Assembly: GCA_900128395.1 (NCBI GenBank)
Contig: LT649266.1
Span: 1 to 51,846, forward strand
Source: Stramenopiles sp. TOSAG23-2
Lineage: Eukaryota
Reading direction: 5' to 3'
Length of the DNA stretch: 51,846 nt
In this document: positions 1 through 49,031 of the stretch, one piece after another
Position numbering within the stretch: position 1 is the first letter of the stretch
Layout of the letters: every line of letters begins with the position of its first letter
Translations under genes and position numbers: made by a program
The notes under the pieces: generated by a model
Database searches by the model: none
Told to the model about the DNA's origin: nothing
The model's input: only the letters and a program-made list of their open reading frames with translations

Positions 1-2
1 AA

Positions 3-170
3 GGCAATGGTGAATATAAGTGGGTAGATGGTGCTACATATACCGGTGAGTGGCACCAAAATAAAATGCATGGTAAAGGTGTATTTATTGATCCAGAGGA
101 AGTACGTTGGGAAGGTAAATTTCATAATGGAAAATATTATAATGGTAGATGCTATGTCACATTACGTTAA
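3..170 (+). CDS. MORN-repeat protein, 3' end only (runs off window start)
   Basis: Manual translation of frame 3: GNGEYKWVDGATYTGEWHQNKMHGKGVFIDPEEVRWEGKFHNGKYYNGRCYVTLR*. This matches the MORN pattern YxGxWxxxxxHGxG. Confidence 0.85.
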   Translation, partial: GNGEYKWVDGATYTGEWHQNKMHGKGVFIDPEEVRWEGKFHNGKYYNGRCYVTLR

Positions 171-660
171 GCATCTATGTGTTATTATTGTCTATTTGTA
201 GCATGCGTGATATAAAGTTAGGATGTATATATATATATATATATATATCAATATCGTACATAACGAAAAATCTAAAAAATATTTGTTTACTAACTTTTTT
301 GAAGTGTGTGTTGTTTAAATGTAAAAAAAAAAAAGAGAGAGGAAAAGTTTGTTTTATTAGCAGGATGTAATATGAGACAGAATGAAAATATGATGGTATA
401 TATATGTAATGCCAGAATTCTAATATGCATAAAATATAAAAGGGAGAGGTAAAGGAAACAGGTGGGGCGTGGTGTTTAAAAAACTTTCTGCTCTGTATAT
501 AAGATATATAATATATCATATCTATTAATATTTTTAATATTTATAAAATAAAATAATTTCTTTTATTTAAAAATAAGATGTATTAATAATTATATTTATC
601 GATCATACAGTACATGCACTCTCTCTCATACTCACTTCACACCTCATCCCCAACATCATT

Positions 661-1719
661 TTATGGCCATAACCAAAATTGTTTTTTATATAAAACAATT
701 AAACATAATAAGAAATTACAACATGAATGTACAATAATACAATTGAGTACATTCCCACCCATCCCAATACCATTATTATTAGTAGAGGAGAACAAAATGA
801 TATGCAATACCATACCCTTCACAATTCCTGGTAATATAGAAATTAAATAATGTTTCTTATCAACTTTTTTATCTGCATTATATGCATTGAATAATAACGA
901 TGTGATCAATGCAATTAATAGATTACCATGTCTACTTCCAACAATATATGTTATATATCCATTTCCTCCTTCGTTTAAAAAGATAATATTCATACGATGA
1001 TAAAAAAACATTCGAAATAACATTTCATCACATATTGGTAAAATAATAGATGCTTGTATTATTTTACATACAATCGATACAGTCACAATCATTGAATAAC
1101 TTTTATTATTTGTAATAAATGCTTGATATGGATTGTACATTGATGTTTCTTTTTGATGTTTATATGGTTCTCCTAATACAAAAGTACGATATAAATGAAG
1201 AAATAAAAACAAAGCAAAACCAATTGTGATACAATTAAATAGACCGATACCATTGTTAATATAGTTTTTCTTGCTTAATAATAATTCATCAATAGTAAAC
1301 ATATATTGAAGTTGATATAATATTATAAATATAATACTATTAAAACAACATTTCAAAATTTGTGAAAAACATTTATGTGCTTGTTCTGAGTCGGAACATA
1401 GATTAATATTATCTTCATACGTTCTATTGACAACTCTCATTGCAAGTGGTGATGATACTATTCCTACCATGACAGCAACGAATTGTGGCAATATTGTTTT
1501 AAATAAATCTACATCTTCTGATTTATGCGTTCCATTTATATAATCATATAATGCTGAAACACAACTAATAAGGGCATAAAAATTAAATATTAATGTTATT
1601 AAATGTAAAATACCACCTATTATACCTTTTTCTTTTAATTTTTCAATTTCATCATGTCTACCTTTTTTACTAGTATCATTTGTATTCTTATCGTTCTTTT
1701 TATTTAATCGTTGTCTCAT
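661..1719 (-). CDS. CPBP/CAAX-protease (Rce1-like) family multi-pass membrane protein
   Basis: Several hydrophobic segments; PICDEMLFR resembles the EExxFR motif and the C-terminal HSCCN resembles HxxxN. Confidence 0.6.
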   Translation of the reverse strand: MRQRLNKKNDKNTNDTSKKGRHDEIEKLKEKGIIGGILHLITLIFNFYALISCVSALYDYINGTHKSEDVDLFKTILPQFVAVMVGIVSSPLAMRVVNRTYEDNINLCSDSEQAHKCFSQILKCCFNSIIFIILYQLQYMFTIDELLLSKKNYINNGIGLFNCITIGFALFLFLHLYRTFVLGEPYKHQKETSMYNPYQAFITNNKSYSMIVTVSIVCKIIQASIILPICDEMLFRMFFYHRMNIIFLNEGGNGYITYIVGSRHGNLLIALITSLLFNAYNADKKVDKKHYLISILPGIVKGMVLHIILFSSTNNNGIGMGGNVLNCIIVHSCCNFLLCLIVLYKKQFWLWP

Positions 1720-1969
1720 TTTTTTTTTGTTATCTATATGTTTTTGTTTTTGTTTGTTTTCTATTGTGTTGTCATTTTTCTTCTTTTTTATTTGTTGTTA
1801 GTTGTCGTAATAATGAGAGATAAAATCATAAAATCCTCTCGTTTTATACAAATAGAAGAAATATAGAAATATAGAAATATAAAAGTAATAAAGGAAAAAT
1901 GATAAATGTGGAAAAATAAAAACAACTAAAAAAACTGCATACATTGTAGTAATAAAATTAACGTAAAGA

Positions 1970-2635
1970 ATGCCACCAACAGTATTCATCGTCGGTGCAA
2001 GTCGTGGAATTGGTAAAGGACTTGTTGATGTCTTTCATAAAGCAGGATGGAGTGTACACGCAACAATAAGAAATACTAATGTTACATTTCCGTCTAATGT
2101 TGTTACTCATTTAATGGATGTTGAAAATGAAGATCAAATACAATCAGTAGCAAATAGTGCAAAATTGTATAATGTGCCTAGTATTGATTTATTTATACAC
2201 AATGCTGGAGTAAAACCATCTGATTCGATCTCCGATGCACAATGTCTCAATATTAATACGGAAGGTCCATTTCGTGTTATCAATGCGTTTATGAAAAAAA
2301 TCACAGATACAGAAAGTCAAAAAAAAGTATGTATTATAACTTCAAAATTAGGATCTCGCGAAAGATTCGGTGGAGGAAAAACACCAAGGGATACCTATGG
2401 AAAAAGTAAATGTTATTTAAATGATAAATTTCGCAAAGTGGAACCAGAATGGAGAAAACATGGGGTACAAAGTATTGTGTTACATCCAGGATGGGTCGTA
2501 ACAGATATGGGTGGCACATCTGCACCAACCTCGATTGAAGAATCTGCAAATGGTATATATAAAGTTTGCGTCACTATGAATTCAGATTATTGTGGAAAAT
2601 TTTATACATTTGAAGGAAAGGAACATCCATGGTAA
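1970..2635 (+). CDS. Short-chain dehydrogenase/reductase, C-factor (CsgA)-like
   Basis: GASRGIG NAD(P)-binding motif, HNAG, catalytic YGKSK, HPGWVVTDMGG and the C-terminal GKF...PW. Confidence 0.92.
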   Translation: MPPTVFIVGASRGIGKGLVDVFHKAGWSVHATIRNTNVTFPSNVVTHLMDVENEDQIQSVANSAKLYNVPSIDLFIHNAGVKPSDSISDAQCLNINTEGPFRVINAFMKKITDTESQKKVCIITSKLGSRERFGGGKTPRDTYGKSKCYLNDKFRKVEPEWRKHGVQSIVLHPGWVVTDMGGTSAPTSIEESANGIYKVCVTMNSDYCGKFYTFEGKEHPW

Positions 2636-3334
2636 AAGATTTTTGAATTTAGTGTGTGCAGTAAGTGTTGTTGTGGGAAGAGATGTGCATGAAAAGTAAA
2701 AATATGTGTGTGTGTTGTGTGTGTGTGGTAGAAATTAATTATGTTTTGTTTGTTTCTTTCAATGTAGTTTAAATTGCTTTCTACAGATGATTGATACAGT
2801 TTGCTATCAATATATTTTTTTCAAAGAAGAGAAAAGGAACTGACTTTCATGGATGATTGTCGTATTTTGTCCACCTGGCCACGGCCACGCTATCAAATGT
2901 TCAATAATTTATACTTGAAAGGGTAAATTAGAATATCAACAAAAAAACTCATCATCGATTTTCTAAAATCTTATCAAATGGCACACAATGACTATTAATA
3001 CAAAATTATTAAGTAGTAAAATTCTAATACCAGTTTAAGTATAATTATGAATATTTTGATAGGTATTTTAGTGATTTCCATTTTCTCATTTTCACACATT
3101 TCTTCCTGAAAATTGATAAATATTTCCGCAAAAATGATTGATTTTACATACTTTCCAATCAAATAGTCTATCAAGTATAATATGTTAAAATAGCACTGAA
3201 TAGGATTGTTTTTACATATTAAACGTCTTTTGACACATTAAACGACTGTGGCACTGCATTTAAAATTTCTTATTTAACTGTACCGGCCTAATAGCCACAG
3301 GTAAAATTCTAGGCTGCCTATAAGCTAGATGATA

Positions 3335-5692: not shown

Positions 5693-8617
5693 TTATTTAC
5701 TACTCTCTGCTTCTTTTGCAGATGGCCCTTTCTTTTGCTCACTAGTAATTCTATCTCCTAATGACAAAGCTATGCCTTGAGTTTTACTACGTATACGTAT
5801 TGCTCCAATAACTCTGGAAGTAACAGTTTTGCCATTTGGCACTTGTATACATTCCACACTTACATTAATAAGTGCATCTTCACCAAAAATACTTCTTGCG
5901 TACAAATTTGCTGCTAAGAAATTACATTCGCCACCAATCGCTTTTGGTGGTGTCAAGCAATTCATGTTTGTAATTGACATGATATGCGTTAAATACTCGT
6001 GTAAATCGTCCATTGATGTATTGACCGTTACCTTATTTTCCCATTCAAATTCAGCCCACATGGAACGGAATTTTGCTTCTGTGCACGTAGCTGGTTTGAT
6101 GTAATCCATAATATCAACACGTATATCATGTAAATTTAACACTGTATTTTCTGCTCTTGTTGAAGAGTCAAAGACAATATTTCCGAAAATATGGCCAGTT
6201 TCCGTGGAGGAAACTTTAATATTTGTCTTCACCGTTTTTCTATCATGGGGACCAAGCGTAAATGCTGCTGGCCTTTCAACAATTTTCAAATCACCCATTG
6301 TTGCTAATTCAATTGTAATATTTGTCAATGTTTGCGGTGTACGATTCATAACTAATACTTCAATGACGATATCATAATCAAGTACTGTGACATATGCTTC
6401 AGCATATATCGGATCTGCAAATCCTGTCAATTGGAATACTTTTTTCAAACGCTCCCTGAAATCAGAAAATCTACCAACTTGTTCACCAGTTGCTTTACTA
6501 ATATCTGCTTCATCATCCAAATCTACTTCTTTTGCACCGATCAAACGTCGCTCTCTTAATTGTCTAAAACTAATCAATGAATCTGCTTGTGACACAACTT
6601 TGGTCACTCCATCCTCATCTTCATCGTCATCGTTTCCAGTGCCGCCAGCAGATGCATCTTTATTTGCACGGCGATCTTTTACCATTTCATCAAAACATAT
6701 GCCACAATCATCAATAAAATTATTCCTCAATGCATTGGATGCATTTGGATCACCTAATACACGTAACCATAGTACTATACGATCAAATGCATCTTGATCC
6801 ATTCGTTTAGATGAATTTAATAATAATTGACCAAGCTTTACCATACTGCACATGGTCAACATGGTATGAACTTGCAATCGTTTTACATCGTTGGTATCAT
6901 ATCCACCTTTCATTGCACCAAGATTAAGTATCATTTTTGACAATGCTGCACATAATGATGTAGCAACGAAGAAATTTCCTTCAACAACCATAGTACGCAA
7001 TGGTGTTGAATCGTCCATCCCTGAATCATCATTATTAGATGAGACGCTTGGCAACGATGTTTGCGTAGCATAAGTGCCATCAGCTAATACAGTCACCGTA
7101 GTGCGAGGTGTATCATCAACGACAGCATCGTTATTATTGTTATTATTATCATCAGAAACTTTTGGTAACAATGGTAATGGACCAAGTGCATCAGATATTA
7201 CACTAAAATTTTGTAAGATCAGTTCTTCCGTAGTACTGTATTCACCAAAAATCCACAAAATAGCACGCATAACATCAGCATTTTTAACTACTGAGATGGA
7301 AACACTCAATTGTTCTAAAATATTTCCTTGCAAATCGCTATATTCTTTCATAATCTCCCGTATGAACAAAATGACTTCCAAACCACCTTCGCTGCTTAAA
7401 AATTCCAATAGAACAGGCACGACAGTTTTTGCAACGGTTGGAAAACGTACAGCAATACTATGTATGGCACGTACTAATAATTGTCTAAATCGTCCAGAAT
7501 TATCAATGGAAGAATCTTGCGTTTTCATCAATTCTTTCTTCAATAATAATACAACTTCATCCACATTTTTCACCGATACTAAACCTAACACGATACTCAT
7601 TGTTTTCGCGCATATATCCATATTTGGACTAGCTAATGCACGTGAAATATCCATCGTATGCTCTTGCACTAATTTTTTATGTTGCTTCGTAAGTTTTGCT
7701 AAACGATCTAAAATGATCAATTTAATATTATTATCCGAGCGATTGCTAGTTAACAACCTGGCATATGTACCAGCTGCTGCACGAACTGCAGTAGCAGCGC
7801 TTGATAATGATACAAGTGTCCATGCCGCTTCATATGAAACTGCATGTGAATCATTATTTAATAAATTATACACTGTCATGATAAATCTGCTTTTTTGTGT
7901 TATATCTTCCCTGCAAACTTTTCTAACTAGTTCCAATACGACTAATTGAAATCCATCACCAAATTTAGTAATTGAATCTTCATTTTCTGCTAAATAATCC
8001 ATAGCACGTGCCGTATCGCATTGAAACAACATGAGGAAACCATTTCGTCTTGCACTGGTATCGCTTTCGCTTTTTAAAAAATTCTCAACGTCCTCTGGTG
8101 CATCTGGCAGCAACTCTGGGAATGCCTTGTACATGCTATAGATACATAACACAGCATTTCTACGTACGTATGCTACACGATGATCTAAATTTTCTTTAAT
8201 TGCTGGAATTAAAGGTTCAATCAACTCCACTTCCTTTAACTTGCATAAAAATCGTAATGTAGACCCACGTACAAACTCATTTGGATGTACTAAATCATTA
8301 CGTATAGCATTGCATACCAATATCATCTCTGTTTTTAATTTGCCATTATCATCGTATTTTTTGACAATTTCCCAATATACGTATAGCAATTTTTTCAATT
8401 GCTTATTGCGTGTATTAATGCAATAACGAATAACATGCATCATAGTATTTGAAGCTAATTTTTCACCTGAAATTAACATTAATATCAACGTTTTTATCGC
8501 TTCAATTTTATCTTTGTCATCGTTGCTTTCCATCAATACACGCAAATTATCAGCCGTTGATCCTTGCGATTTATTATATGCAATCAACACGGTACAATTT
8601 TCTTCCACACTTGACAT
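5693..8617 (-). CDS. COPB1: Coatomer subunit beta (beta-COP)
   Basis: 974-aa intronless ORF with EMILVCNAIRNDLVHPNEFVRGSTLRFL, QLTGFADPIYAEAYV, FRSMWAEFEWENKV and IRIRSKTQGIALSLGDRI. Confidence 0.98.
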   Translation of the reverse strand: MSSVEENCTVLIAYNKSQGSTADNLRVLMESNDDKDKIEAIKTLILMLISGEKLASNTMMHVIRYCINTRNKQLKKLLYVYWEIVKKYDDNGKLKTEMILVCNAIRNDLVHPNEFVRGSTLRFLCKLKEVELIEPLIPAIKENLDHRVAYVRRNAVLCIYSMYKAFPELLPDAPEDVENFLKSESDTSARRNGFLMLFQCDTARAMDYLAENEDSITKFGDGFQLVVLELVRKVCREDITQKSRFIMTVYNLLNNDSHAVSYEAAWTLVSLSSAATAVRAAAGTYARLLTSNRSDNNIKLIILDRLAKLTKQHKKLVQEHTMDISRALASPNMDICAKTMSIVLGLVSVKNVDEVVLLLKKELMKTQDSSIDNSGRFRQLLVRAIHSIAVRFPTVAKTVVPVLLEFLSSEGGLEVILFIREIMKEYSDLQGNILEQLSVSISVVKNADVMRAILWIFGEYSTTEELILQNFSVISDALGPLPLLPKVSDDNNNNNNDAVVDDTPRTTVTVLADGTYATQTSLPSVSSNNDDSGMDDSTPLRTMVVEGNFFVATSLCAALSKMILNLGAMKGGYDTNDVKRLQVHTMLTMCSMVKLGQLLLNSSKRMDQDAFDRIVLWLRVLGDPNASNALRNNFIDDCGICFDEMVKDRRANKDASAGGTGNDDDEDEDGVTKVVSQADSLISFRQLRERRLIGAKEVDLDDEADISKATGEQVGRFSDFRERLKKVFQLTGFADPIYAEAYVTVLDYDIVIEVLVMNRTPQTLTNITIELATMGDLKIVERPAAFTLGPHDRKTVKTNIKVSSTETGHIFGNIVFDSSTRAENTVLNLHDIRVDIMDYIKPATCTEAKFRSMWAEFEWENKVTVNTSMDDLHEYLTHIMSITNMNCLTPPKAIGGECNFLAANLYARSIFGEDALINVSVECIQVPNGKTVTSRVIGAIRIRSKTQGIALSLGDRITSEQKKGPSAKEAESSK

Positions 8618-22287: not shown

Positions 22288-24132
22288 ATGAAAGAAGAAG
22301 AAAATAATAATAATATTACAACAACAAAAGCGGAAAGATTAGCAGCAAAAAAAGCAAGAAAATTAGCTAGACGTGCATTGCGTAAACAAGAGGAAGAGGC
22401 AAAGGCAAAAGGATTATCAACGGATACTATTGGTGTTAATATTGAAGCATCTAAATCAGTTATTAATAAACCATTGCCTGAAATACCGTATAATTTGAAA
22501 CCAAATGCTGTTACAATATGTCTATGTTATCAATATAAAGAACCTGCTTGGAGTAAAAAACAACATAAAAATGCAATAACACAAATTTCTAAATTTGCAA
22601 ATCAATATAATATTACAGGTAGAGGACGTTGTGCTAGAGAAGGTTTAAATTGTACATTGACTGCAAGTGCTGAAAACATGAGAAAATTCTGTTATGCATT
22701 GAGAGAATGGGATCCTTTATTTAATGAAACTGATTTCAAATTAAGCGATGGCGAAGTTTCAAGTGCTATGTTTCGTACATTTACGTTGCGAAAAGTAGAA
22801 GAGCTTGTTGGGTATGGTTTAGGTGGGGTCAAAGCTCCTTCTATTAAAAAACATGCAGGTAAACATTTAGAAGCAATTGATTACCATAAACAAATGGAGC
22901 AAAAAGATACGGTAATCATAGATGTTCGAAATAAATATGAATCAGATATTGGACATTTTCAACCACCAAAAAATGGTGCTGAACTTTTGTTACCACCTGT
23001 ACGTAACTCAAATGAATTTCCGAAATGGTTCAATGATCCACAAGTAAAAAAAAAATTACATAATAAAACTGTAATGATGTATTGTACAGGTGGAATACGA
23101 TGTGAACGAGCTACTGCATTATTAAATCAAATGACGGAAGCGGAAGAAGATGGTGGTTTTAAAACAAAAGATGTAGTCATGGCACGCGGTGGCATTGAAC
23201 GATATATAAAAACATTTCCAACTGGTGGTTATTGGAAAGGTAAAAATTATTTATTTGATAAAAGAATGGAGCAAGTACCAGAATTAAAACCTATAAATAA
23301 AACAGATGAAGAGTTGCAAAATGTAACATGTTGTATGTGCGATAAACCATATTCATCGTATCGAGGTCAATTTAAATGTGGAAAATGTTATGTACCCGTC
23401 ATTGTTTGTACAAAATGTCAACATAAGGCAAAACGAAAGCCAGAAGCATGTGTATGTCCATTATGTAAAGAAGGATACGAAGTCCCAGATTTAAAACCAG
23501 ATTTAATTGGCCAAAAACGTAAACTTGGTTTAATAGATACTAGTGGGAAAGATGTAGTCTCAGGAAGTCTTATTACTGGCGGGAGCACGAGTCTCGTATC
23601 AAATAAGAAAGGTAGAATTGATACTAATACTAGTGTGGAACCATCATGTTACCTATTATTAAAGCGTTTACCATTGATAATAACAGCCAATGCACTTCGC
23701 CATTCAATATTACTTTCGTTATTGTTGTATTCATCACCATCATTGGAAGATAGTGATGAAGACTTGTCAATAAAAGACATATCACAAATAATTAAACATG
23801 TAAAATGGAATATTGATAAAGATACAAATACATTTAATGGTAATGCTATTGTCCACCTATCGTCGTTAAAATATGCAAACGCAATTGTAGACTTTCATGA
23901 TCAACAAAATGGTTTAATAGTATTTTCATCAGATTCTGACGCATTGCAAGTAATACGTAAAGCAAAGGGTGCTATTAAGTATCAAGGAAAGAAGAATGTA
24001 AATTATTTAGAAATTTGTAAGAAAATTAAAAAAAAAAAATTAGGACGTCGTATGAATGTTACTTTTATGAAAAAAGATAAGGATTTATTATTATTTGAAG
24101 AAAAAGAATTAGAATATCCACCGGTATTATAG
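22288..24132 (+). CDS. UPF0176/TrhO-TSTD2-type rhodanese-domain protein
   Basis: GRGRCAREGLNCTL, IDVRNKYESDIGHF, active-site YCTGGIRCE, GGIERY, WKGKNYLFDKR and a Cys-rich C-terminal domain. Confidence 0.92.
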   Translation: MKEEENNNNITTTKAERLAAKKARKLARRALRKQEEEAKAKGLSTDTIGVNIEASKSVINKPLPEIPYNLKPNAVTICLCYQYKEPAWSKKQHKNAITQISKFANQYNITGRGRCAREGLNCTLTASAENMRKFCYALREWDPLFNETDFKLSDGEVSSAMFRTFTLRKVEELVGYGLGGVKAPSIKKHAGKHLEAIDYHKQMEQKDTVIIDVRNKYESDIGHFQPPKNGAELLLPPVRNSNEFPKWFNDPQVKKKLHNKTVMMYCTGGIRCERATALLNQMTEAEEDGGFKTKDVVMARGGIERYIKTFPTGGYWKGKNYLFDKRMEQVPELKPINKTDEELQNVTCCMCDKPYSSYRGQFKCGKCYVPVIVCTKCQHKAKRKPEACVCPLCKEGYEVPDLKPDLIGQKRKLGLIDTSGKDVVSGSLITGGSTSLVSNKKGRIDTNTSVEPSCYLLLKRLPLIITANALRHSILLSLLLYSSPSLEDSDEDLSIKDISQIIKHVKWNIDKDTNTFNGNAIVHLSSLKYANAIVDFHDQQNGLIVFSSDSDALQVIRKAKGAIKYQGKKNVNYLEICKKIKKKKLGRRMNVTFMKKDKDLLLFEEKELEYPPVL

Positions 24133-24468: not shown

Positions 24469-24635
24469 TTACAACTTTATGAAGGAGGACCTCTTTCACT
24501 TAGCTCTGAATCACAGACAGAGGAACCATCTTTTGAATACTAAATAATTTTTACTGAAACTTTATAAATCATTTTTGATTTGAGATGTTAATGAACGGGA
24601 GTAAAAGAATTTTATATAACATATGAGTAAGAGAA
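24469..24635 (+). repeat. Dispersed repeat A, copy 1
   Basis: 24469-24567 equals 29399-29497 with 1 mismatch, and 24588-24635 equals 29503-29550 with 1 mismatch. It encodes LQLYEGGPLSLSSESQTEEPSFEY* followed by UTR-like sequence. Confidence 0.92.
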
Positions 24636-25080: not shown

Positions 25081-25252
25081 NNNNNNNNNNNNNNNNNNNN
25101 NNNNNNNNNNNNNNNNNNNNNNNNNNNNNNNNNNNNNNNNNNNNNNNNNNNNNNNNNNNNNNNNNNNNNNNNNNNNNNNNNNNNNNNNNNNNNNNNNNNN
25201 NNNNNNNNNNNNNNNNNNNNNNNNNNNNNNNNNNNNNNNNNNNNNNNNNNNN
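25081..25252. other. Assembly gap (N run)
   Basis: Run of N characters. Confidence 1.
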
Positions 25253-25793
25253 GGAAGGATAGAAACCTACTTGTGCTTGTAGAGTATTAGTTTGCAGAGG
25301 TGCATTAGAGCTTTACTATAGTAGGATATAACATATTATTCTTGCGATTGAGTATTGAGCATATTACTTTAACACGAGAAGTATAAAAATATTATAACTT
25401 ACTTCGTAGATTTTAACCATTTTATTTTATATTTAAAAAATATATATATAATTTTCTCAACAAATACAAAAACCGATAGCTCACGAATTGAGAACTCCCA
25501 TGATGATGACCGGGGCATAACGGGATTTTTTAAAGACGGAAATCAATATAAGGAATTGCATGAGGACATGAATTTACAAAAATTTCAAAACGATATGAAT
25601 AATGATGATGAATCTTCTTCATTGCCAAAATATGCGTAGAAAGTGCTGTAAAAGTATGAGTGTAATATTTAAATAAATAAATATAATAAAACTAAACTGA
25701 AGAATATATAAACGAATTGAGAACTCCCATGATGAGATATATATAAATAATTTCCTATGTTTATACGTACCAGTATAATAAATAAGTATTTAA

Positions 25794-25916
25794 AAATCAT
25801 TTTTGATTTGAGATGTTAATGAACGGGAGTATAAAAGAAATTTATACGCTCGTATAATATAATGAGTAAGAGAACATTTTATATAATTTTCTCTTACTCA
25901 TATAATATTATACGTA
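25794..25916. repeat. Partial copy of repeat A followed by an inverted copy of its end (hairpin)
   Basis: AAATCATTTTTGATTTGAGATGTTAATGAACGGGAGT as at ~24566. ATGAGTAAGAGAA (25862-25874) pairs with TTCTCTTACTCAT (25889-25901). Confidence 0.85.
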
Positions 25917-25920
25917 TATA

Positions 25921-26500
25921 TTACGTGAACTTCTATTTTATGTCGATACAACAATTACAAACAAAACCCAACCTAAGATACCAAAACTACGAAAATTAAC
26001 CGTCGAGAATGATCCTCTTGACTGCTGCCAAAACTTATTGATGAATACGATGGTCGTTAACAACCACATTTTCCAAGCTTCAAAATTAAAATTACAAAAG
26101 TACAAAAGAAGCCATGAAAATGCACGTGCTAACGGTTCTCGCTCTAATGCATCAATAGTTCCATTCGCAGTCGATACGCTAGGAAATTTTTGCTCTATTG
26201 CTATTACCTTCTTAAAAGCAATTGCTAAAACAAAGTTTGCAAAAATCTCGAACAAAGCCGAAGTAAGGGAGCTCGCAGCTTCTAATTGGATTTCTACTAC
26301 GTGTAGAGATATACAAACCGCGATTATTAAGACTTGCGCCTATAATAATCGTTTTGCTTTAAAATGTGCATTTGGTGAGTCGTATAATGAATTGTACCCT
26401 GGTACAATTTATTCTCCGCCTTCCTATGATGCCCATTTTTTATCAAGTAGGAATTATCATGAGTAAATTAAAAATAAATTATGCGTAAATTAAATTATAT
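25921..26500 (+). mobile_element. 5'-truncated non-LTR retrotransposon fragment, restriction-like endonuclease (CRE/R2-type) C-terminus
   Basis: Open frame 25921-26466: YVDTTIT...ASKLKLQKY...IVPFAVDTLGNFCSIAITFLKAIAK fits the RLE pattern D(V/T)T...KxxKY...PxxxET(L)G. No RT domain is visible. Confidence 0.65.
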
Positions 26501-26514
26501 TACGTACTTTTAAT

Positions 26515-29286
26515 TTAACTAAATAATTTTAACAAATTCCAACCCTCAGTATCGTCCTGCGAATCTTCTTGTGAACTGTCCCAATCTTGCATTTTTGGTG
26601 GTCGATAGCGTTTTGTGGAAACAATGGTGATTACGCAACCCATATACCGAGCATCTTGCATTATTTCTATCCGAACCGTATCCACCTCCACGTCATTCAC
26701 TCGCAATACCATCACAATTTTATCATCTTCTTCCAAAGTCCCAGTCAAAAATTGATACAATAGTGGCAGAAAATTTCCAAAGGTTAAGGTGTTGGTTTTG
26801 ACTCGCTGCATGATCGTAGTATAATCCCCGTAGTATTCCGCAGCCTGTGGGCTGCGGTACACCAAACTCTGCAACCAATTTTCCACATGCATGTCATGAA
26901 TCACAAACATCCGGGCCTTTGATTCTGGACCATGGACTTGCACCAGTTTCTCCAAAAACTCTTGGTATTGTTTCGGATTAGAAACCTCAGTAGGGTATCC
27001 TTTAAACTTTCGCAGCGTTTTATGCATCCACTCTCGCACATCGTATTCCCCAAAGTCCGTCGGTACTTCTTCTTCGATGACACTTCCAACCAATGCGTGC
27101 ATCGCGTCAATTTCCGGGGTTTTTTCCACGATCACCGCAGTATAAAATTGTTTCGAGGCATCGGTATGAAAGGTTATGGTAAAGGTCCGACACATTCCAT
27201 CCTTGCATTGAATGTCCCGCTCTATTTCTGGAATCCGTCCACTCCAGATCGGCCGTAACACCACGTTCCACATGACGTGCATGGGGTTACGAATTGGTTT
27301 GATATTTGTTGAAATTTCGAAAATATTTCCAAAACAATGTAGAAATTCATCCGAATAATGCAGAGACGTCTCAAAGGTAGACTGCGACAAATCGGAAGTC
27401 ACGTACATTCCCGTGTATCGAGACTGAACTTGCTCTAATGTTATTGAGGATGACGACGGACGATAAAACCATTTCAACACGTTCCATCCCCATCGCGTAG
27501 CAGAAAGAATGGAACTCCCCGATCCATTCAATTTCTTTCGTTGATTTTCGAGATGCAATGGCAAGTTGTAATTCTGCTTTCCCTCCACCACCAGCACGTA
27601 GAATCGCTTGCTCTTCGAGCGGAACTGTCGCAAGACATAGGTATGCATCTTTCCTTCACGCATCACGTCTCGATGTAAGCGTGGGGTCCTTCCTTGCAAC
27701 AATGGTTTCAAAAACCCTGTCCACATAAAGGTGGTGGAGTACCCCTCCTCCCCGAACACGGTATAGATATTTTGCTGGGGCCCGAATTGTTGGACGTATG
27801 CGTTCGAGGCATACACGTGAGAGGCTTCAAACGTTGTCGCTTTTAAATCCCAAATGCAAAACCATGCACGTTCTTTGTACAGGTCCACCATTTGTGCTAA
27901 CGTTCCACCATCACCAGCAAAGTATTGCATCACCTTGAACCCCCACAACGCTATATTCTTCGCAGACAATGTTCCAAACTGATGGGTGGTTACGATTGTG
28001 GGGAAGTCATACTCTGGTGATTCACGTACCAAGCCGCAAACGTATCGGGGGATATTACGATGTTTCACCAATCGAACATCCACAATAATATCCTCGGCCA
28101 ACCGCAACTCAAAGGTACCTTTGGCGATGTTGGCTAGTAACGAGATATAAAACGAGGTGGATCGAAGATTTTCTTTGAACAAATATTCCAAATTGTGATG
28201 GGATTCCGCTTGTGATTTTGGCAAAGTAACTTGAGAATGTGCAAACGTTGATGAGGACAAATCGCCTAGGTGAAAGCATCGCCGGCCTGCGTCCATTCCA
28301 AGTTCGTTTTGTATGATTTGGAGCGGATTGGGTTCTGGGGCTAACGAGGGTATCCCCATCATTTTTTTCACAAAGACAAATACACTCGCTTCCACGAGTC
28401 CACCAGATGGAGACATGGTTTGTTCTTGGTTGCCAGGCACCATGCTCACGTCCAAAGGCAAGTCGTCCTGGTCGATCACATCCAACCAACTTTGTACTGG
28501 ATATCCTACCAGTTGGGATATGGCAAACCGGGCTTTGGTATCGTCGTTGTCCGGTAATGCGGCAAAACATTTGACAGCCGAGGCATCGGTTCCTTGGATT
28601 GTTTCACACAATAGTAATCCTTCTTTTTTCCCAGTATGCCAATACGTACATGAGTTTTTGTATGCAAGTGGCTCACCAACAAGACCAAGTTTTTTCGGCT
28701 TCTTTTGCTTCAACAAGTGTGTCAGCAATACCTTTGCCAACGACGATTTCCCAAAGAAGTGTAACACCACAGTATGGAAATTGATTGTTTGTTGTTGTTG
28801 TTGTAAAGTTTCTTCCACCCGACCCATGAGTTGACTGTTAAGAAAGCGCACAATAACGTCAGTCGGTTGCCCTGTGCTTTCCATGACTTTCCATACTTTT
28901 CGACGCATTTTATTGACGCGTACAGTCCATGGTAAGGTACACAATACAGAAGACTTGTATGAATGACCATATTTTCCATCATGATCCGTCCAAAAAATAA
29001 CACTATTTTTTGTATATCTACGCATCGGCTCGGGCTCTTCCGATCGCAATGTATGGAGTAAATTACCCTTTCGAACACTTACGGTCCAACGATTTATTTT
29101 CTCTTCCGGTATATGAATTTTTTCTCTTTCCAGTTGCAATTGACACGGTACCACCGACTGTTTTTTTAAATACTCATGAATGTCCTCTACCAACGTGTTT
29201 TTCTTTAGTCTTTTCACTATTTTTTTCTTAATTGTTACATCAACCAATGAGGTCTTTTCGTTTCGTCTTTTAGGCTTTCTCTTCAT
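26515..29286 (-). CDS. Orphan 923-aa protein with four tandem PAS-like repeats; GC-richer than its neighbours
   Basis: Long intact ORF with first ATG at 29286 and a basic NLS-like start (MKRKPKRR). It has four ~130-150-aa internally similar units. Spot counts give ~45-50% GC versus ~30% in a neighbouring gene. Confidence 0.8.
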   Translation of the reverse strand: MKRKPKRRNEKTSLVDVTIKKKIVKRLKKNTLVEDIHEYLKKQSVVPCQLQLEREKIHIPEEKINRWTVSVRKGNLLHTLRSEEPEPMRRYTKNSVIFWTDHDGKYGHSYKSSVLCTLPWTVRVNKMRRKVWKVMESTGQPTDVIVRFLNSQLMGRVEETLQQQQQTINFHTVVLHFFGKSSLAKVLLTHLLKQKKPKKLGLVGEPLAYKNSCTYWHTGKKEGLLLCETIQGTDASAVKCFAALPDNDDTKARFAISQLVGYPVQSWLDVIDQDDLPLDVSMVPGNQEQTMSPSGGLVEASVFVFVKKMMGIPSLAPEPNPLQIIQNELGMDAGRRCFHLGDLSSSTFAHSQVTLPKSQAESHHNLEYLFKENLRSTSFYISLLANIAKGTFELRLAEDIIVDVRLVKHRNIPRYVCGLVRESPEYDFPTIVTTHQFGTLSAKNIALWGFKVMQYFAGDGGTLAQMVDLYKERAWFCIWDLKATTFEASHVYASNAYVQQFGPQQNIYTVFGEEGYSTTFMWTGFLKPLLQGRTPRLHRDVMREGKMHTYVLRQFRSKSKRFYVLVVEGKQNYNLPLHLENQRKKLNGSGSSILSATRWGWNVLKWFYRPSSSSITLEQVQSRYTGMYVTSDLSQSTFETSLHYSDEFLHCFGNIFEISTNIKPIRNPMHVMWNVVLRPIWSGRIPEIERDIQCKDGMCRTFTITFHTDASKQFYTAVIVEKTPEIDAMHALVGSVIEEEVPTDFGEYDVREWMHKTLRKFKGYPTEVSNPKQYQEFLEKLVQVHGPESKARMFVIHDMHVENWLQSLVYRSPQAAEYYGDYTTIMQRVKTNTLTFGNFLPLLYQFLTGTLEEDDKIVMVLRVNDVEVDTVRIEIMQDARYMGCVITIVSTKRYRPPKMQDWDSSQEDSQDDTEGWNLLKLFS

Positions 29287-29398
29287 GATATGAATGGTGT
29301 TTATTTGATCTAGTTCTCTGTAAACATATAATATATATATATATATTATATATATTAACGACAATACAAAAACATTTAGATTGATTAAAGAATGTGAC

Positions 29399-29550
29399 TT
29401 ACAACTTTATGAAGGAGGACCTCTTTCACTTAGCTCTGAATCACAGACAGAGGAACAATCTTTTGAATACTAAATAATTTTTACTGAAACTTTATAAGGA
29501 TTTTAATGAACGGGAGTAAAAGAAATTTATATAACATATGAGTAAGAGAA
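29399..29550 (+). repeat. Dispersed repeat A, copy 2
   Basis: Direct repeat of 24469-24635 lacking an internal segment; followed by CATTTTATA and (TA)n. Confidence 0.92.
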
Positions 29551-29907
29551 CATTTTATAAATATATATATATATATATATTCCACTTAAGTTTCACGTAA
29601 ATATGCACTCTCGTCACACTTTTTTACATTGTTGTCCAATGAAATAGCATTACAAGAAGGGTATTTTGACGATATCGTTATAAATAGGGTATTTTATACT
29701 TTTTTTGTCAACAAAAAATGAAGTGCACAAGTGTATTAATACATAATAAAATTAATTATTATCATATGAACTTAGATTTAAACCATCAAATATATATATG
29801 CATATTAATATATATTTTAAAGTACATGTATACGCAGCATGTAAAGAATGAACATATACATCTAGACACACCAGCGCACTTCTTCTACTCGTAAATCTCT
29901 TTCTGTT

Positions 29908-30937
29908 TTAATCGTTTAAATCACCATTACCTCCTCCTACGTATCTACCATTTCTATCATGCCAATTTGATTTTCCACCTTTTGAACGTATAAGTGCAAT
30001 GATCTCTTGGCGAATTGGACTAGTATTCCATTGATATGCCCTGTCCCGGGGAGTGAATCCCCTGGACGACATCTTATTAATGCTAGCATTAGTCATATGA
30101 TTTAACAAGAACTGAATCAACTCAGTACTTGTTGTGCTATAACGTGCTGCATAATGTAATGCATTCCAACCACCACTATTTGCAATATTAGGATCAGCTT
30201 CACCATGTTCAATTAAACATTTAACTATTTGGAAATGTTCGTTCTCTGCAGCTGCCATTAAAGATGTACAATCATAACCATAACTATCTTTACTGACACG
30301 ACTCACCATTTCTTTCAATGTCATCCCATCTCTGTAGCCATTCACATCGCGATTAGTAATATACTTGTGAAAAGGATGAAGAATTATAAATAATTCTACA
30401 TCATCCATACGTCCGCGTTGACATGCACATACGATAGGTGTTGGCATTAGATTTCTGCATACTGTACCACGTTTCTACATCATCCATACGTCCGCGTTGA
30501 CATGCACATACGATAGGTGTTGGCATTAGATTTCTGCCATGTACTGTACCACGTGGAAACTCTCTTTTATAACTTTCAATTAATAAATAAAGTGTTCTCG
30601 CTGGATGTGAAAGTCTCATCTCATTTATACTTCGTCTACCTTTATAATCAATACTCAAGGCTTCATAACGTACGCGTTCAAAATCATCACATCCATATGC
30701 TTTTCTACATTGTTGTATTAAAGAAGATCGTTTTACATTACATAATGATCGAATATCTAAATGTAGAAGTATTTTTGTCATGATCCCGCAGGCAGACTCA
30801 AAGCCAGCTGGTAAAACTAATGTACCAATTTCAATAGGTTCCGCACGTTCTTCTTGTAACGCTTTGATGGTTGCTGTTCGTAATTTCGTACGTTGTCGTT
30901 TCGCATGTGGTGGAGGTGCGGTAGTCATTGATGCCAT
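29908..30937 (-). pseudogene. Ankyrin-repeat protein with F-box-like N-terminal segment, frameshifted by a 79-bp tandem duplication
   Basis: TPIVCAC..GR, TSLMAAAENEHFQIVKCLI and WNALHYAA ankyrin motifs, plus IMTKILLHLDIRSL. Removing 30394-30472 fuses the two ORFs in frame. Confidence 0.8.
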
Positions 30938-34357: not shown

Positions 34358-35404
34358 TCAGCATTTATCCTTAAAAAATGCGCTACATTGTGGTGCGAAA
34401 CCTCTGCAATACCGATAACCAAGCATAATACATAATGCTTGGACACTTCGAGGTGCTGGGGGTGTTAGTTGGTTGAAACTCAGAGTAAGCCTCGTCAACG
34501 CTTTCAATTCCCCTAATTCTGCCGGGATGGGTCCAGTTAAATGGTTGGTATTCAGACCAAGCCACGTCAACGCTTTCAATTCCCCTAATTCTGCCGGGAT
34601 GGATCCAGTTAGTTGGTTGTTATTCAATTGAAGCTTCGTCAACGCTTTCAATTTCCCTAATTCTGCCGGGATGGATCCAGTTAGTCGGTTGGCACCCAGA
34701 CTAAGCCACGTCAACGCTTTCAATTCCCCTAATTCTGCCGGGATGGATCCAGTTAATTGGTTGAGATCCAGAGCAAGAATCGCCAACGCTTTCATTTCCC
34801 CTAATTCTGCCGGGATGGATCCAGTTAGTTGGTTGGCACTCAGAGTAAGCTTCGTCAACGCTTTCAATTCCCCTAATTCTGCCGGGATGGATCCAGTTAG
34901 TTCGTTGTTCCACAGATTAAGATGCACCAATGCTTTCATTTCCCCTAATTCTGCCGGGATGGATCCAGTTAGTTGGTTGCCATACAGATCAAGATGCACC
35001 AATGCTTTCAATTCCCCTAATTCCGCCGGGATGGATCCAGTTAGTTGGTTGCCATACAAATTAAGCCTCGTCAACGCTTTCAATTCCCCTAATTCTGCCG
35101 GGATGGATCCATTTATTCGGTTGGCAATAATATTGGTAAACAGAGCAATAATTGTAATATAATTATCTGTACATTTTACACCGTGACCGTTACCATATTT
35201 ATCAAAATTCCCACACGATGGCGAACACGGGTCTGATTTACATTCCTTACGCAACCCAACTTCAGGTCTCGCTAATTCCCAATGATCGTATATTTTCTCC
35301 CATGCCTCAAGATTTGCCCCTTCCACTAGCGCATGCAACATCATTATTCCTATGCAAACACGTATCACATTAAATCCACCTCCACCACGATCATTTCCTT
35401 TCAT
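34358..35404 (-). CDS. Secreted plant-specific-type LRR protein (about 9 x 24-aa repeats)
   Basis: Signal-like N-terminus, Cys-rich N-cap, repeats LxxLxLxxNQLTGSIPAELGELKA and a Cys-containing C-cap; no TM or kinase domain. Confidence 0.93.
   Translation of the reverse strand: MKGNDRGGGGFNVIRVCIGIMMLHALVEGANLEAWEKIYDHWELARPEVGLRKECKSDPCSPSCGNFDKYGNGHGVKCTDNYITIIALFTNIIANRINGSIPAELGELKALTRLNLYGNQLTGSIPAELGELKALVHLDLYGNQLTGSIPAELGEMKALVHLNLWNNELTGSIPAELGELKALTKLTLSANQLTGSIPAELGEMKALAILALDLNQLTGSIPAELGELKALTWLSLGANRLTGSIPAELGKLKALTKLQLNNNQLTGSIPAELGELKALTWLGLNTNHLTGPIPAELGELKALTRLTLSFNQLTPPAPRSVQALCIMLGYRYCRGFAPQCSAFFKDKC
34465..35110. repeat. 72-bp coding tandem array (LRR units)
   Basis: TTCCCCTAATTCTGCCGGGATGGATCCAGTTA recurs every 72 bp nine times with very few changes. 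Confidence 0.95.
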
Positions 35405-39617: not shown

Positions 39618-40180
39618 GATTATGTATTTATTATTTGGTATATACTTGTTATTATAATTTAATGTAGTTTTTGATGTTTAATTGTTGTTTCTATTTCTTG
39701 CTTGTTGTACACACATATACACATATACACACACATATATACACACACACATATACAGTATGTTAACTATCAAACTTATAATCAATATAATAAGTGCATT
39801 TAATAATAAAAATGAATGGCGAGATCGGCTCAAATACCCTATTTCTAACTGGCTATTCCAGGGTTCAGGGGCAGACGACTTTTCCTTAAATACGAGTACT
39901 GGAGTACCATAGATTAGATTTGAGGCACTCGACTAATAAATTATGATGTGATATATATCCAGATACTGTATGATGCACATCATATCCTAATCCTCGTCGT
40001 ATTAAAAATGCGTTATGCGTTGCAAATCTTTCAAGTACTTATACAGGATATGCAAAAAAATAAAACAAAAGGATAAGAAAAAGAAAAAAATAGACGAAAC
40101 AACTATTTCAGGTAAAACATATTTCATACATACCATAGGGTAGACGATAGATATTCTGTCGTATTTGGATTGATATCAAC

Positions 40181-41263
40181 ATGTGCAAATGCCATGAGAA
40201 TATGACAGCTGCAGAGCTTTTAAAAAGATCCAAACGTGATAAAAAACTCATGAAATTAACATTAGAACAAATTTCCAACCACCGAGACCGTGACATGCTT
40301 GATCGTGTACTATGCCTTGCAAATAGGCGTCTTTTAGAACTGTCTGGGATATCAAAGTGGGTCCCAATACATAGCAAGTATAGTAATAATGCTAAGCGCA
40401 TTTTGGAAGAAAGAAAAAGTCAGAGAAATTTTACACCAAAGTGTTTCAAAGATGATTTTAATAATGCAAGGAACCCTGTAGCATCAAGGAAAAAATGGCA
40501 AAAAAAAGAGCCAATAAGGTATGGTAGTTGTCAATATCACGATCGAGAGTCCAAAGAAAGGCCTATTTGTGCCGGAAAACTTGACACAAATGATCCCGCA
40601 TATGGAGAGAATTCTGTCACAGGAATATTTGCAGAACGAGACATTGATGTACATGAATTAAAAATGGAATATGTGTGTGAATTTACGACACACCAGGAAT
40701 TCAATGATAAAATTGATAAAGATTTATTCAACGAGCCGAGTTATATGTACTCACTCGATCCGAAATGTGCTCCGAGTCTTACCGGCGATGCATCTACCCA
40801 TCGTGGAATGGCTGCTTACATTAATGACTATCGCACAGACATTGTAAATTTTGACGGCCCGCAAGGCCGTCAACCAAATGTAAAAAGCATTGATTGCATT
40901 TATAATGGTGAGGTAAAGATGTACATAATAAATACAAAACCAATTAAAAAGGGGGAGCAACTATTACTTGATTATGGGTTAAATTTTTGGAAAATGTATC
41001 ACACAGTTTTCAGTCGGATTGCTAATAATGTTCATGAGAAAGACAAAGAAATTACAAAATTAACACAAGAGGTAACTGAAAAAGACAAAGAAATTACAAA
41101 ATTAACACAAGAAGTAACTGCATTGCAAAAGAAACTGGCAGAGACAACAAATTTTATTGCTTCATCCGACAATAATACATTGTTGGCAAGCAAAGAAAAA
41201 GAAATTGCTGAATTAAAAAGAAAAATTAATTTATTGCAAGCACAAAATGTAGTAATAGTATAA
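40181..41263 (+). CDS. SET-domain protein with C-terminal coiled coil
   Basis: GIFAERDI, MEYVCE, AAYINDYR..PNV and IKKGEQLLLDYGLNFW; tandem EKDKEITKLTQEVT x2. Confidence 0.85.
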   Translation: MCKCHENMTAAELLKRSKRDKKLMKLTLEQISNHRDRDMLDRVLCLANRRLLELSGISKWVPIHSKYSNNAKRILEERKSQRNFTPKCFKDDFNNARNPVASRKKWQKKEPIRYGSCQYHDRESKERPICAGKLDTNDPAYGENSVTGIFAERDIDVHELKMEYVCEFTTHQEFNDKIDKDLFNEPSYMYSLDPKCAPSLTGDASTHRGMAAYINDYRTDIVNFDGPQGRQPNVKSIDCIYNGEVKMYIINTKPIKKGEQLLLDYGLNFWKMYHTVFSRIANNVHEKDKEITKLTQEVTEKDKEITKLTQEVTALQKKLAETTNFIASSDNNTLLASKEKEIAELKRKINLLQAQNVVIV

Positions 41264-47102: not shown

Positions 47103-47918
47103 ATGAATACAATGCTTTCGTCTAGAAAAGTGTTACCATTGGATGAAACGAAGCAGAACAATGACAATGTTGATGTAAAGGTTGAATTTGAATTAAAAAA
47201 AAAGCAAGCACCACCACTGTCTAAAATGCCGACTTTAACGACTGAAGAAGAAAAATTATTTAACAAATTCAAACAATTATTAGCAGCGACAAGTGTTGAT
47301 ACCGATGCAGCCAACTATTTAAATCTTGCATATGCGGAAAACGACGAAGATTTAGAGGATCTTGACAATATGGCGAAAGAAATTGTAGACAATCTAGCAA
47401 TTGACTCTGCATATGCACAATTCGAAGATATAAAATTAGGTGCCATTGATATAGTATTGTGTCCAGACAAATCTTTGATATCTAGGCAATTTATGATGCG
47501 TTGTATCATTATCAAAACATTTGAAACAATTTTGTTGTTATACGCATTTGCAAGTGTTCCCGTATACAACAATCCTTTCTTTAATCAGTTTATCAATACA
47601 TCAAATACAGAAACTACTACTACAACATATGTACCATTATCATTTATTATCATTTGTACATTTGCATATTATGTACAATTGAATTTAATGACTAGTATTC
47701 GTAACAGTTTGTTACTAGTGACTACAAAAGACTTTAAACCAATTAAAAATTGGAAGTATCACGTAAAATTTCTTTCTGAAATTATTGAAATATTACTATT
47801 AATTACATTATGCTTTTTTGCATTGTCTACATATATATATGAATATAACTTGGAATTGATTTTCAATGGTATGGCAGTGATATTTATTGCAGAATTTGAC
47901 GAGTTGACGTGTACGTAA
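47103..47918 (+). CDS. Hypothetical multi-pass membrane protein, copy 1
   Basis: Hydrophilic N-terminus followed by about four hydrophobic segments, ending LIFNGMAVIFIAEFDEL; possibly 3'-truncated. Confidence 0.65.
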   Translation: MNTMLSSRKVLPLDETKQNNDNVDVKVEFELKKKQAPPLSKMPTLTTEEEKLFNKFKQLLAATSVDTDAANYLNLAYAENDEDLEDLDNMAKEIVDNLAIDSAYAQFEDIKLGAIDIVLCPDKSLISRQFMMRCIIIKTFETILLLYAFASVPVYNNPFFNQFINTSNTETTTTTYVPLSFIIICTFAYYVQLNLMTSIRNSLLLVTTKDFKPIKNWKYHVKFLSEIIEILLLITLCFFALSTYIYEYNLELIFNGMAVIFIAEFDELTCT

Positions 47919-48215: not shown

Positions 48216-49031
48216 ATGAATACAATGCTTTCGTCTAGAAAAGTGTTACCATTGGATGAAACGAAGCAGAACAATGACAATGTTGATGTAAAGGTTGAAT
48301 TTGAATTAAAAAAAAAGCAAGCACCACCACTGTCTAAAATGCCGACTTTAACGACTGAAGAAGAAAAATTATTTAACAAATTCAAACAATTATTAGCAGC
48401 GACAAGTGTTGATACCGATGCAGCCAACTATTTAAATCTTGCATATGCGGAAAACGACGAAGATTTAGAGGATCTTGACAATATGGCGAAAGAAATTGTA
48501 GACAATCTAGCAATTGACTCTGCATATGCACAATTCGAAGATATAAAATTAGGTGCCATTGATATAGTATTGTGTCCAGACAAATCTTTGATATCTAGGC
48601 AATTTATGATGCGTTGTATCATTATCAAAACATTTGAAACAATTTTGTTGTTATACGCATTTGCAAGTGTTCCCGTATACAACAATCCTTTCTTTAATCA
48701 GTTTATCAATACATCAAATACAGAAACTACTACTACAACATATGTACCATTATCATTTATTATCATTTGTACATTTGCATATTATGTACAATTGAATTTA
48801 ATGACTAGTATTCGTAACAGTTTGTTACTAGTGACTACAAAAGACTTTAAACCAATTAAAAATTGGAAGTATCACGTAAAATTTCTTTCTGAAATTATTG
48901 AAATATTACTATTAATTACATTATGCTTTTTTGCATTGTCTACATATATATATGAATATAACTTGGAATTGATTTTCAATGGTATGGCAGTGATATTTAT
49001 TGCAGAATTTGACGAGTTGACGTGTACGTAA
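48216..49031 (+). CDS. Hypothetical multi-pass membrane protein, copy 2
   Basis: Identical to 47103-47918. Confidence 0.6.
   Translation: MNTMLSSRKVLPLDETKQNNDNVDVKVEFELKKKQAPPLSKMPTLTTEEEKLFNKFKQLLAATSVDTDAANYLNLAYAENDEDLEDLDNMAKEIVDNLAIDSAYAQFEDIKLGAIDIVLCPDKSLISRQFMMRCIIIKTFETILLLYAFASVPVYNNPFFNQFINTSNTETTTTTYVPLSFIIICTFAYYVQLNLMTSIRNSLLLVTTKDFKPIKNWKYHVKFLSEIIEILLLITLCFFALSTYIYEYNLELIFNGMAVIFIAEFDELTCT

Follow-up and report, generated by a model that had tools for sequence, protein, structure and literature searches.

In stramenopiles and haptophytes, PAS domains are found in transcription factors as bHLH-PAS, bZIP-LOV, heat shock factor (HSF)-PAS, and homeobox-PAS proteins, in which a DNA-binding domain is fused at the N terminus, according to the account given in PMC4827209. 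The bZIP-LOV type corresponds to the aureochromes of photosynthetic stramenopiles. Outside eukaryotes, PpsR of Rhodobacter is a transcription regulator with three PAS domains and a helix-turn-helix (HTH) domain, while histidine kinases with PAS domains are found in Klosneuvirus, Hokovirus, and the jumbo phage Atu_ph07. Here, we describe a gene located at positions 26,515 to 29,286 of a contig of 51,846 nucleotides (LT649266.1, C642 in our numbering, hereafter the window) from Stramenopiles sp. TOSAG23-2 (GCA_900128395.1), which encodes four PAS-fold units behind a repeated N-terminal domain that we call X. It belongs to a real but unnamed family of PAS arrays, characterized by the repetition of X and a foreign provenance. 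By analogy, the protein most likely works like a PAS transcription regulator, and it is a member of none of the named families tested.

The gene is a single-exon open reading frame (ORF), open throughout, in which an intron is needed nowhere. The window consists of AT-rich eukaryotic DNA, its genes are mostly devoid of introns, and it comes from an assembly of 32.8 Mb in 9146 contigs that is possibly incomplete. The host is presumably a heterotrophic, stramenopile-like protist. The GC content at third codon positions (GC3) of the gene is 0.47 versus a mean of 0.23 (standard deviation, 0.06) in the 22 other ORFs of the window, confirming the unusual GC content that an earlier note, made from the sequence alone, had pointed out. 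The nearest value (0.41) corresponds to a leucine-rich repeat (LRR) gene at 34358-35404, and no other ORF comes close. The whole protein had no match in Pfam or NCBIfam, and the best one in PHROGs reached only an E value of 0.33. HisKA and HATPase domains were absent from the Pfam and NCBIfam results.

The earlier note had proposed four homologous units with PAS-like motifs, and the translation does contain all the motifs that it quoted; the units extend from ca. 28395 to 26611. Exactly four were found with a profile built from 20 units of distant relatives; these 20 were cut by hand, with cuts guided by alignments to the window protein, and the best of 300 shuffled sequences, which control for composition only, gave 2.5 bits. 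With a profile of unit 2 made from close homologues, unit 3 was reached at an E value of 1.9e-19 and unit 4 at 0.04, while the profile of unit 1 reached the other units at about 0.1 only (all values from a small database). Units 2 and 3 formed one clade in the tree (support 94/92, not starred). At the sequence level, Pfam PAS families were not recovered at E≤10 with the whole protein or at E≤1 with 14 unit sequences, and sequence-profile searches against the PDB gave a best E value of 0.086 with alignment A2 and nothing with A4 and A5. In the ESM Atlas, units 2-3 retrieved TraJ (0.87) and PAS_4 (0.86, 26% of members), both below 0.9 and taken as leads only.

The AlphaFold model obtained with a 35-row alignment had a mean predicted local distance difference test (pLDDT) of 67.8 and a predicted template modeling score (pTM) of 0.36; a model from the single sequence (pLDDT 31) was not used. 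Foldseek against the PDB gave eight matches at E≤1e-3, each of them a LOV-PAS or PpsR chain. In a wide structural search (48,161 chains), the top match was the aureochrome LOV domain 6i21 (Z 9.2, root mean square deviation [rmsd] 3.6, 111 aligned positions), followed by the PAS domain of an ELK channel (Z 9.0), and in a second search the best was the aureochrome LOV domain 6i23 (Z 9.7, rmsd 3.6, 112 aligned, 17% identity). The best 50 rows of the wide search were all PAS-bearing entries, by title for most and, for a few, by what we take them to be. Unit 4 alone (model range 784-897) matched NPAS1-ARNT 5sy5_B (Z 6.3, rmsd 3.4, 99 aligned). Two points call for caution here, namely, the moderate quality of the model, with its low pTM, and the fact that the top structural match is a hybrid of the first half of unit 2 and the second half of unit 3 (462-727, ca. 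111 aligned), an artifact of a one-unit slip in some rows of the alignment. Altogether, the model supports a PAS fold for unit 4 and for the unit 2/3 hybrid. Unit 1, for which the best 50 rows of both searches contain no separate structural match, is putatively PAS by sequence homology only.

The LOV cysteine motif (NCRFL, within GXNCRFLQ), already described as lacking in the earlier note, was present in 0 of 36 family sequences, and therefore the units are not LOV photoreceptors. The segment that we take to correspond to this motif, from the assumed layout of LOV domains, was modeled as one short helix. No His or Cys common to all units was invariant, while H490 and H538 were invariant in unit 2 across 10 close sequences.

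These features set the protein apart from the described systems. As in aureochromes, the best structural match of the units, an N-terminal module precedes a PAS-fold module, and a long loop separates the first two strands. In contrast, the window protein has neither the cysteine motif nor a bZIP domain (Pfam gave no match, and the model shows no long leucine-zipper helix), carries four units instead of one, and is only ca. 17% identical. The bHLH-, bZIP-, HSF-, and homeobox-PAS factors are nuclear proteins that combine an N-terminal DNA-binding domain with one or two dimerizing PAS domains (as outlined in PMC4827209), a plan akin to that found here, and unit 4 resembles NPAS1-ARNT. However, Pfam recognized none of those four DNA-binding domains, and the window protein differs in having a repeated N-terminal domain outside Pfam, four PAS units, and a foreign codon usage. 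PpsR is a precedent for a transcription regulator that carries tandem PAS domains devoid of LOV chemistry, and it occupied ranks 2, 3, and 5 of the Foldseek results, but it is bacterial, has its HTH at the C terminus, and showed no detectable sequence similarity to the window protein. Finally, the histidine kinases of Klosneuvirus, Hokovirus, and Atu_ph07 were the top matches in BFVD (E values of 2.9e-6, 6e-3, and 9e-3), although this is a fold-only match at 7 to 12% identity with proteins whose kinase or receiver domains are lacking here.

The statement in the earlier note that there is no kinase or other output domain holds for the kinase. However, the N-terminal third of the protein (amino acids [aa] 30-270) consists of two copies of a globular domain, X, which is a candidate output module. 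X was detected with a profile built from 11 distant copies, and the first copy was modeled as a beta-hairpin followed by helices. It lies N-terminal to the units in all full-length members aligned, with three copies in P0007 and P0008, and the first 60 aa hold a basic cluster in 16 of the 17 proteins examined, extending to the family the nuclear localization signal (NLS)-like N terminus noted before. X also forms the N terminus of a 540-aa protein predicted to have four membrane segments, the gene of which adjoins a relative of the window gene on each of two loci (L003:5750-7375, minus strand; L004:3323-4933, plus strand). Since it is both repeated and fused to membrane segments in this neighbor, X is a free-standing module; the 540-aa protein could itself be a membrane-tethered regulator. 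We consider X a candidate DNA- or chromatin-binding module. Against this assignment, no DNA-binding fold or motif known to date was found for X, and the charge of X1 is only mildly basic (22 K+R versus 16 D+E). X had no match among the best 50 rows of either structural search, both filled by PAS entries, and the ESM Atlas gave no usable match with the X domain of P0043. A search for X in longer proteins was also negative, a result that weighs little given that it covered the range of 1135 to 3240 aa only.

The gene is not an orphan, as had been thought, but part of a marine family. The protein search retrieved 10 proteins, one identical and nine at 32 to 77% identity, and a second search gave 25 cluster representatives, among them the identical protein and P0052, a low-complexity repeat that was removed from all alignments and counts. 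A search with the distant profile gave four proteins, every one in the P0032 group. From the five loci of a metagenome scan, four were real (L003 to L006), while L007 proved to be an accidental match of 25 aa, antisense to an unrelated gene. The closest relatives show 73 to 77% protein identity (nucleotide identity of 87% for L003 and 83% for L004). The architecture of the family is a basic N terminus, one to three copies of X, and then two (P0043, P0046, and P0050), three (P0032), or four PAS-fold units. As with the window protein, family members had no match in Pfam, NCBIfam, or PHROGs. No description of the family was found in the literature searched, which did not extend to the supplementary gene tables of the mirusvirus paper, where it may be listed.

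Taking these data together, we tentatively favor, at somewhat less than an even chance, a regulator that acts in the nucleus and was taken up from a pool of mobile or viral genes. The basic N terminus would allow entry into the nucleus, the tandem X domains would touch DNA or chromatin, and the PAS units, whose fold is modeled, may act as dimerization or partner/small-ligand modules tuning the binding of X, in the manner of bHLH-PAS, bZIP-PAS, HSF-PAS, and PpsR-type regulators. This model draws on position and analogy, and the presence of two X copies favors a regulator over the pure sensor or decoy suggested by the earlier note. We regard the regulator function, taken alone, as slightly more probable than not; together with a mobile or viral donor, it becomes a more tentative proposal. 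The gene did not evolve under the codon usage of the host. Its source would be a large mobile element, or a virus that uses the nucleus, bearing GC-richer accessory genes that recombine as a pool, and the gene would have arrived fairly recently, probably together with its upstream motif, at a repeat-rich spot flanked by housekeeping genes. A bolder version, in which X is a new DNA-binding fold and the family comprises domain-recombined PAS-array regulators of a nucleus-replicating virus or giant mobile element of heterotrophic marine protists, captured intact with the promoter and expressed by the host, seems to us unlikely.

Several lines of evidence support a foreign origin. The codon log-ratio of the gene was +0.31 bits per codon toward the genes neighboring its relatives in L003 and L004, and it was negative in all 19 host ORFs tested, a set that excluded the two ORFs of the ankyrin region and one duplicate; this bears out the codon-usage check proposed earlier. 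Divergence from L003 was uneven, with a synonymous divergence (dS) of 0.03 for unit 2, 0.18 to 0.32 for the remaining units, and 1.3 for X1, and the nearest relative changed along the domains (P0004, P0003, P0006, P0006, P0005, and P0003). These switches and the uneven dS indicate that copies recombine in a shared pool. The gene neighborhoods differ among the window, L003, and L004; the neighbors in the latter two are differing orphan genes, all with GC3 values of 0.39 to 0.66, that encode SET-domain proteins, a protein resembling aspartic proteases, and the X-membrane protein. Only this gene and microsatellites are common to these loci and the genome, as far as the possibly incomplete assembly shows. 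For the L004 copy and the neighbor clusters, source names indicate the 0.22- to 0.45- and 0.45- to 0.8-micrometer fractions. In addition, contig C686 of the same genome carries (at ca. 6690-7830, L002:919-2058) a frameshifted tyrosine recombinase followed ca. 250 bp behind by one PAS-like unit. This decayed recombinase matches an intact one in the genome (tblastn E value of 3.7e-21), and the remnant has a GC3 of 0.33 and is flanked by ordinary host genes. Thus, the acquisition from a virus or mobile element proposed in the earlier note is supported in its foreign component, but no viral contig was found to carry the family (all six scans of IMG/VR were empty).

As for the donor, we lean modestly toward a mobile element or virus, consider a cellular donor possible but less probable, and assign a small chance to a misassembly. 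Tyrosine-recombinase cargo elements such as Starships are one candidate. Another is provided by mirusvirus-derived genes of protists, which are nuclear, intron-tolerant, rich in unnamed genes, and present in host assemblies, as described in PMC12768974 and PMC10827195. However, the hallmark genes of mirusviruses and Starships were not linked to the family on the contigs read, and no tyrosine recombinase was seen beside the gene or on L003/L004.

The strongest competing explanation is a cellular origin, which we rate as possible, although less so than a mobile or viral source. Here, the gene would be one member of a multigene family confined to a lineage of related marine protists, relocated within the genome or transferred from protist to protist without any virus or autonomous element, and its home would be a fast-evolving GC-richer nuclear compartment, which an assembly of 9146 contigs may miss, or a GC-richer relative. 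Several findings speak for it and against our preferred reading. A relative at 61% identity exists in EukProt. The spacers of L003 and L004 are eukaryote-like and AT-rich; they contain TA microsatellites and an upstream motif that ordinary host genes have as well. L005 and L006 carry a short canonical GT-AG spliceosomal intron, the excision of which restores the alignment, and this means nuclear splicing. Viral hallmark genes were absent from L003 to L006 (1.9 to 13 kb), and the scans of IMG/VR and GTDB and a tblastn search of phages were empty, although the IMG/VR scans detect close relatives only. The C686 remnant is a single case that belongs to a different subfamily in the tree. The spacers, introns, EukProt relative, and missing viral matches fit a cellular donor equally. 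However, the dS of 0.03 in unit 2 would demand a recent exchange with a compartment otherwise unseen in the genome, and the small size fractions in the source names and the remnant linked to a recombinase also speak against it. Spliceosomal introns are also abundant in mirusviruses (PMC12768974), and mirusvirus genes occur in protist assemblies (PMC10827195), so that introns do not exclude a viral donor.

Regarding function, a decoy or scaffold is an unlikely alternative to the regulator. In this case, the PAS array would bind host PAS regulators or other nuclear proteins, blocking or redirecting them, and X would be protein-binding. The lack of a recognized DNA-binding or catalytic domain, a unit number ranging from two to four, and ratios of nonsynonymous to synonymous divergence (dN/dS) mostly of 0.3 to 0.6 (up to 0.5 to 0.9 in unit 4), which together with the domain shuffling resemble those of conflict-driven proteins, are consistent with such a role. 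Nevertheless, no dN/dS value exceeded 1, and members only 20 to 30% identical keep X at the N terminus, behind the basic cluster, the usual place of a DNA-binding domain.

We judge it improbable that the gene is not chromosomal, i.e., that amplification or assembly fused viral or foreign DNA to the contig by way of the repeats on its flanks. High-copy repeats do flank the gene on both sides, with an N gap at ca. 25082-25252, and no independent contig bridging the gene and its host neighbors appeared among the 32 pieces listed of ca. 3,200, which also counts against our preferred reading. On the other hand, the host repeat upstream of the gene sits, outside the protein, inside a TA run that separates the upstream motif (29683) from the ATG. 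Without it, the distance from motif to ATG is ca. 170 bp, matching the 177 bp of L003 and 198 bp of L004, which suggests insertion into resident DNA and real chromosomal residence. Moreover, sequencing runs from 11 studies, of which one may be the source, contain a near-identical allele.

The runs holding the gene were marine, and 15 of 20 were recorded as RNA; one DNA run also carried a variant at ca. 92% identity. In two poly(A) libraries, each from a different study, contigs covered the coding sequence without a gap at 99.9% identity, with three differences each. This goes some way toward the expression data asked for earlier and fits expression, although it falls short of proof of transcription given that DNA can be present in contigs of RNA libraries, a further reservation about the preferred reading. 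Bin 29634-29830 had no coverage in both RNA runs and some in both DNA runs and was not counted as evidence. The gene is intact and probably expressed.

A multi-input sensor, with units binding flavin, heme, or another cofactor by non-LOV chemistry in response to light, oxygen, or redox, is highly improbable: in structure the units come closest to LOV and EAG-type PAS domains, and two histidines are invariant in unit 2, but the LOV motif is missing throughout, its presumed segment is a short helix, and no His or Cys is invariant across units. Ligand-binding residues were not identified, a point against the ligand role that we propose for the PAS units of a regulator.

Table 1. Features of the PAS-array gene and its flanks in the window
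Feature	Position	Strand	Remarks
Whole gene, single exon, 923 aa	26515..29286	-	Basic N terminus, X1, X2, four PAS-fold units, short acidic tail
Basic N terminus, NLS-like	29200..29286	-	14 K/R in 29 aa; putative nuclear import
Domain X copy 1 (X1), aa 30-156	28819..29199	-	36.7 bits versus shuffle maximum of 2.8; pLDDT 71-90
Domain X copy 2 (X2), aa 165-270	28477..28794	-	Without hairpin; 29.9 bits; pLDDT mostly 60-87
Unit 1, most divergent	28015..28395	-	aa 300-419; 10.6 bits; putative PAS, by homology only
Unit 2, PAS fold plus two capping helices	27571..27969	-	aa 443-570; 69.6 bits; C-terminal half pLDDT <50
Unit 3, PAS fold	27112..27513	-	aa 597-723; 53.3 bits; clade shared with unit 2
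Unit 4, best-modeled PAS fold	26611..27051	-	aa 749-891; 102.6 bits; pLDDT mostly 81-92
Promoter-like motif WWACCCTATTYNTAA	29678..29692	-	Also upstream of L003/L004 genes (97-261 bp) and of ordinary host genes
High-copy host repeat, apparent 3' end of truncated element, (TA)n tail	29357..29580	+	58 matches from 40 scored candidates
High-copy element, 3' fragment	25927..26500	+	124 matches; ends ca. 15 bp from the stop codon of the gene; context

The upstream motif WWACCCTATTYNTAA was derived from the same sites where it is enriched, so that its enrichment there is partly circular. This telobox-like sequence has 29 sites in the genome, ca. 200 to 430 bp upstream of several host genes, and could be a host cis-element. 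The motif ACCCTATT was considered as a donor signature and rejected; it occurs 29 times in the genome (10 for the reversed control), also upstream of ordinary host genes, and is therefore no marker of foreign DNA. Regarding the repeats, a second dispersed family with (TA)n ends has three pieces in the window (24470-24635, 25790-25885, and 29357-29580). The copies at 24470 and 29357 are 89% alike versus 83 to 87% for dispersed copies, and therefore the idea that they are the ends of a composite element was not supported. The element that ends next to the stop codon has an 898-aa open frame on contig C2433, the C-terminal 636 aa of which had no Pfam match; from its motifs, it is presumably a non-long terminal repeat (non-LTR) retrotransposon with a restriction-like endonuclease.

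Other genes of the window deserve mention. The LRR gene (minus strand) encodes a signal peptide and has a codon score of +0.23 toward the foreign pool, making it a second candidate insert. A SET-domain gene at 39834-41263 (plus strand), with a score of -0.14, is the least host-like of the host ORFs, possibly an older capture, and the upstream motif also precedes its ATG, by 332 bp. An ankyrin gene at 29908-30937 (minus strand) is broken into two frames by an exact 65-nucleotide duplication (30394-30458 and 30473-30537), and the very high depth of metagenome contigs for it suggests a large family; on the other side of the PAS-array gene lies a rhodanese gene (22288-24132). Two tandem ORFs (47103-47918 and 48216-49031, plus strand) encode the same 271-aa product, reflecting either a recent duplication or an assembly artifact. 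On L003, positions 1-2820 (minus strand) contain an open frame of 940 aa that matches SET weakly and has what we take to be Ulp1-like and RING-like motifs, and more SET-like genes are found on L003 and L004. Elsewhere in the genome, four ORFs of the phage integrase family (L031 to L034, on C808, C778, C8074, and C2339) scored above the Pfam cutoff; they have GC3 values of 0.35 to 0.44 and form small islands among host genes.

The PAS regulators described in protists join PAS to DNA-binding domains of familiar types, and in viruses PAS domains appear mainly in histidine kinases. The family presented here has no Pfam, NCBIfam, or PHROG model and recurs in marine data, and its repeated N-terminal domain X is also found on membrane proteins. 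If X binds DNA, these proteins would represent a new class of transcription factors in abundant uncultured plankton, and, if the donor was a virus or mobile element, the window would preserve a recent and datable capture of a regulator together with its promoter.

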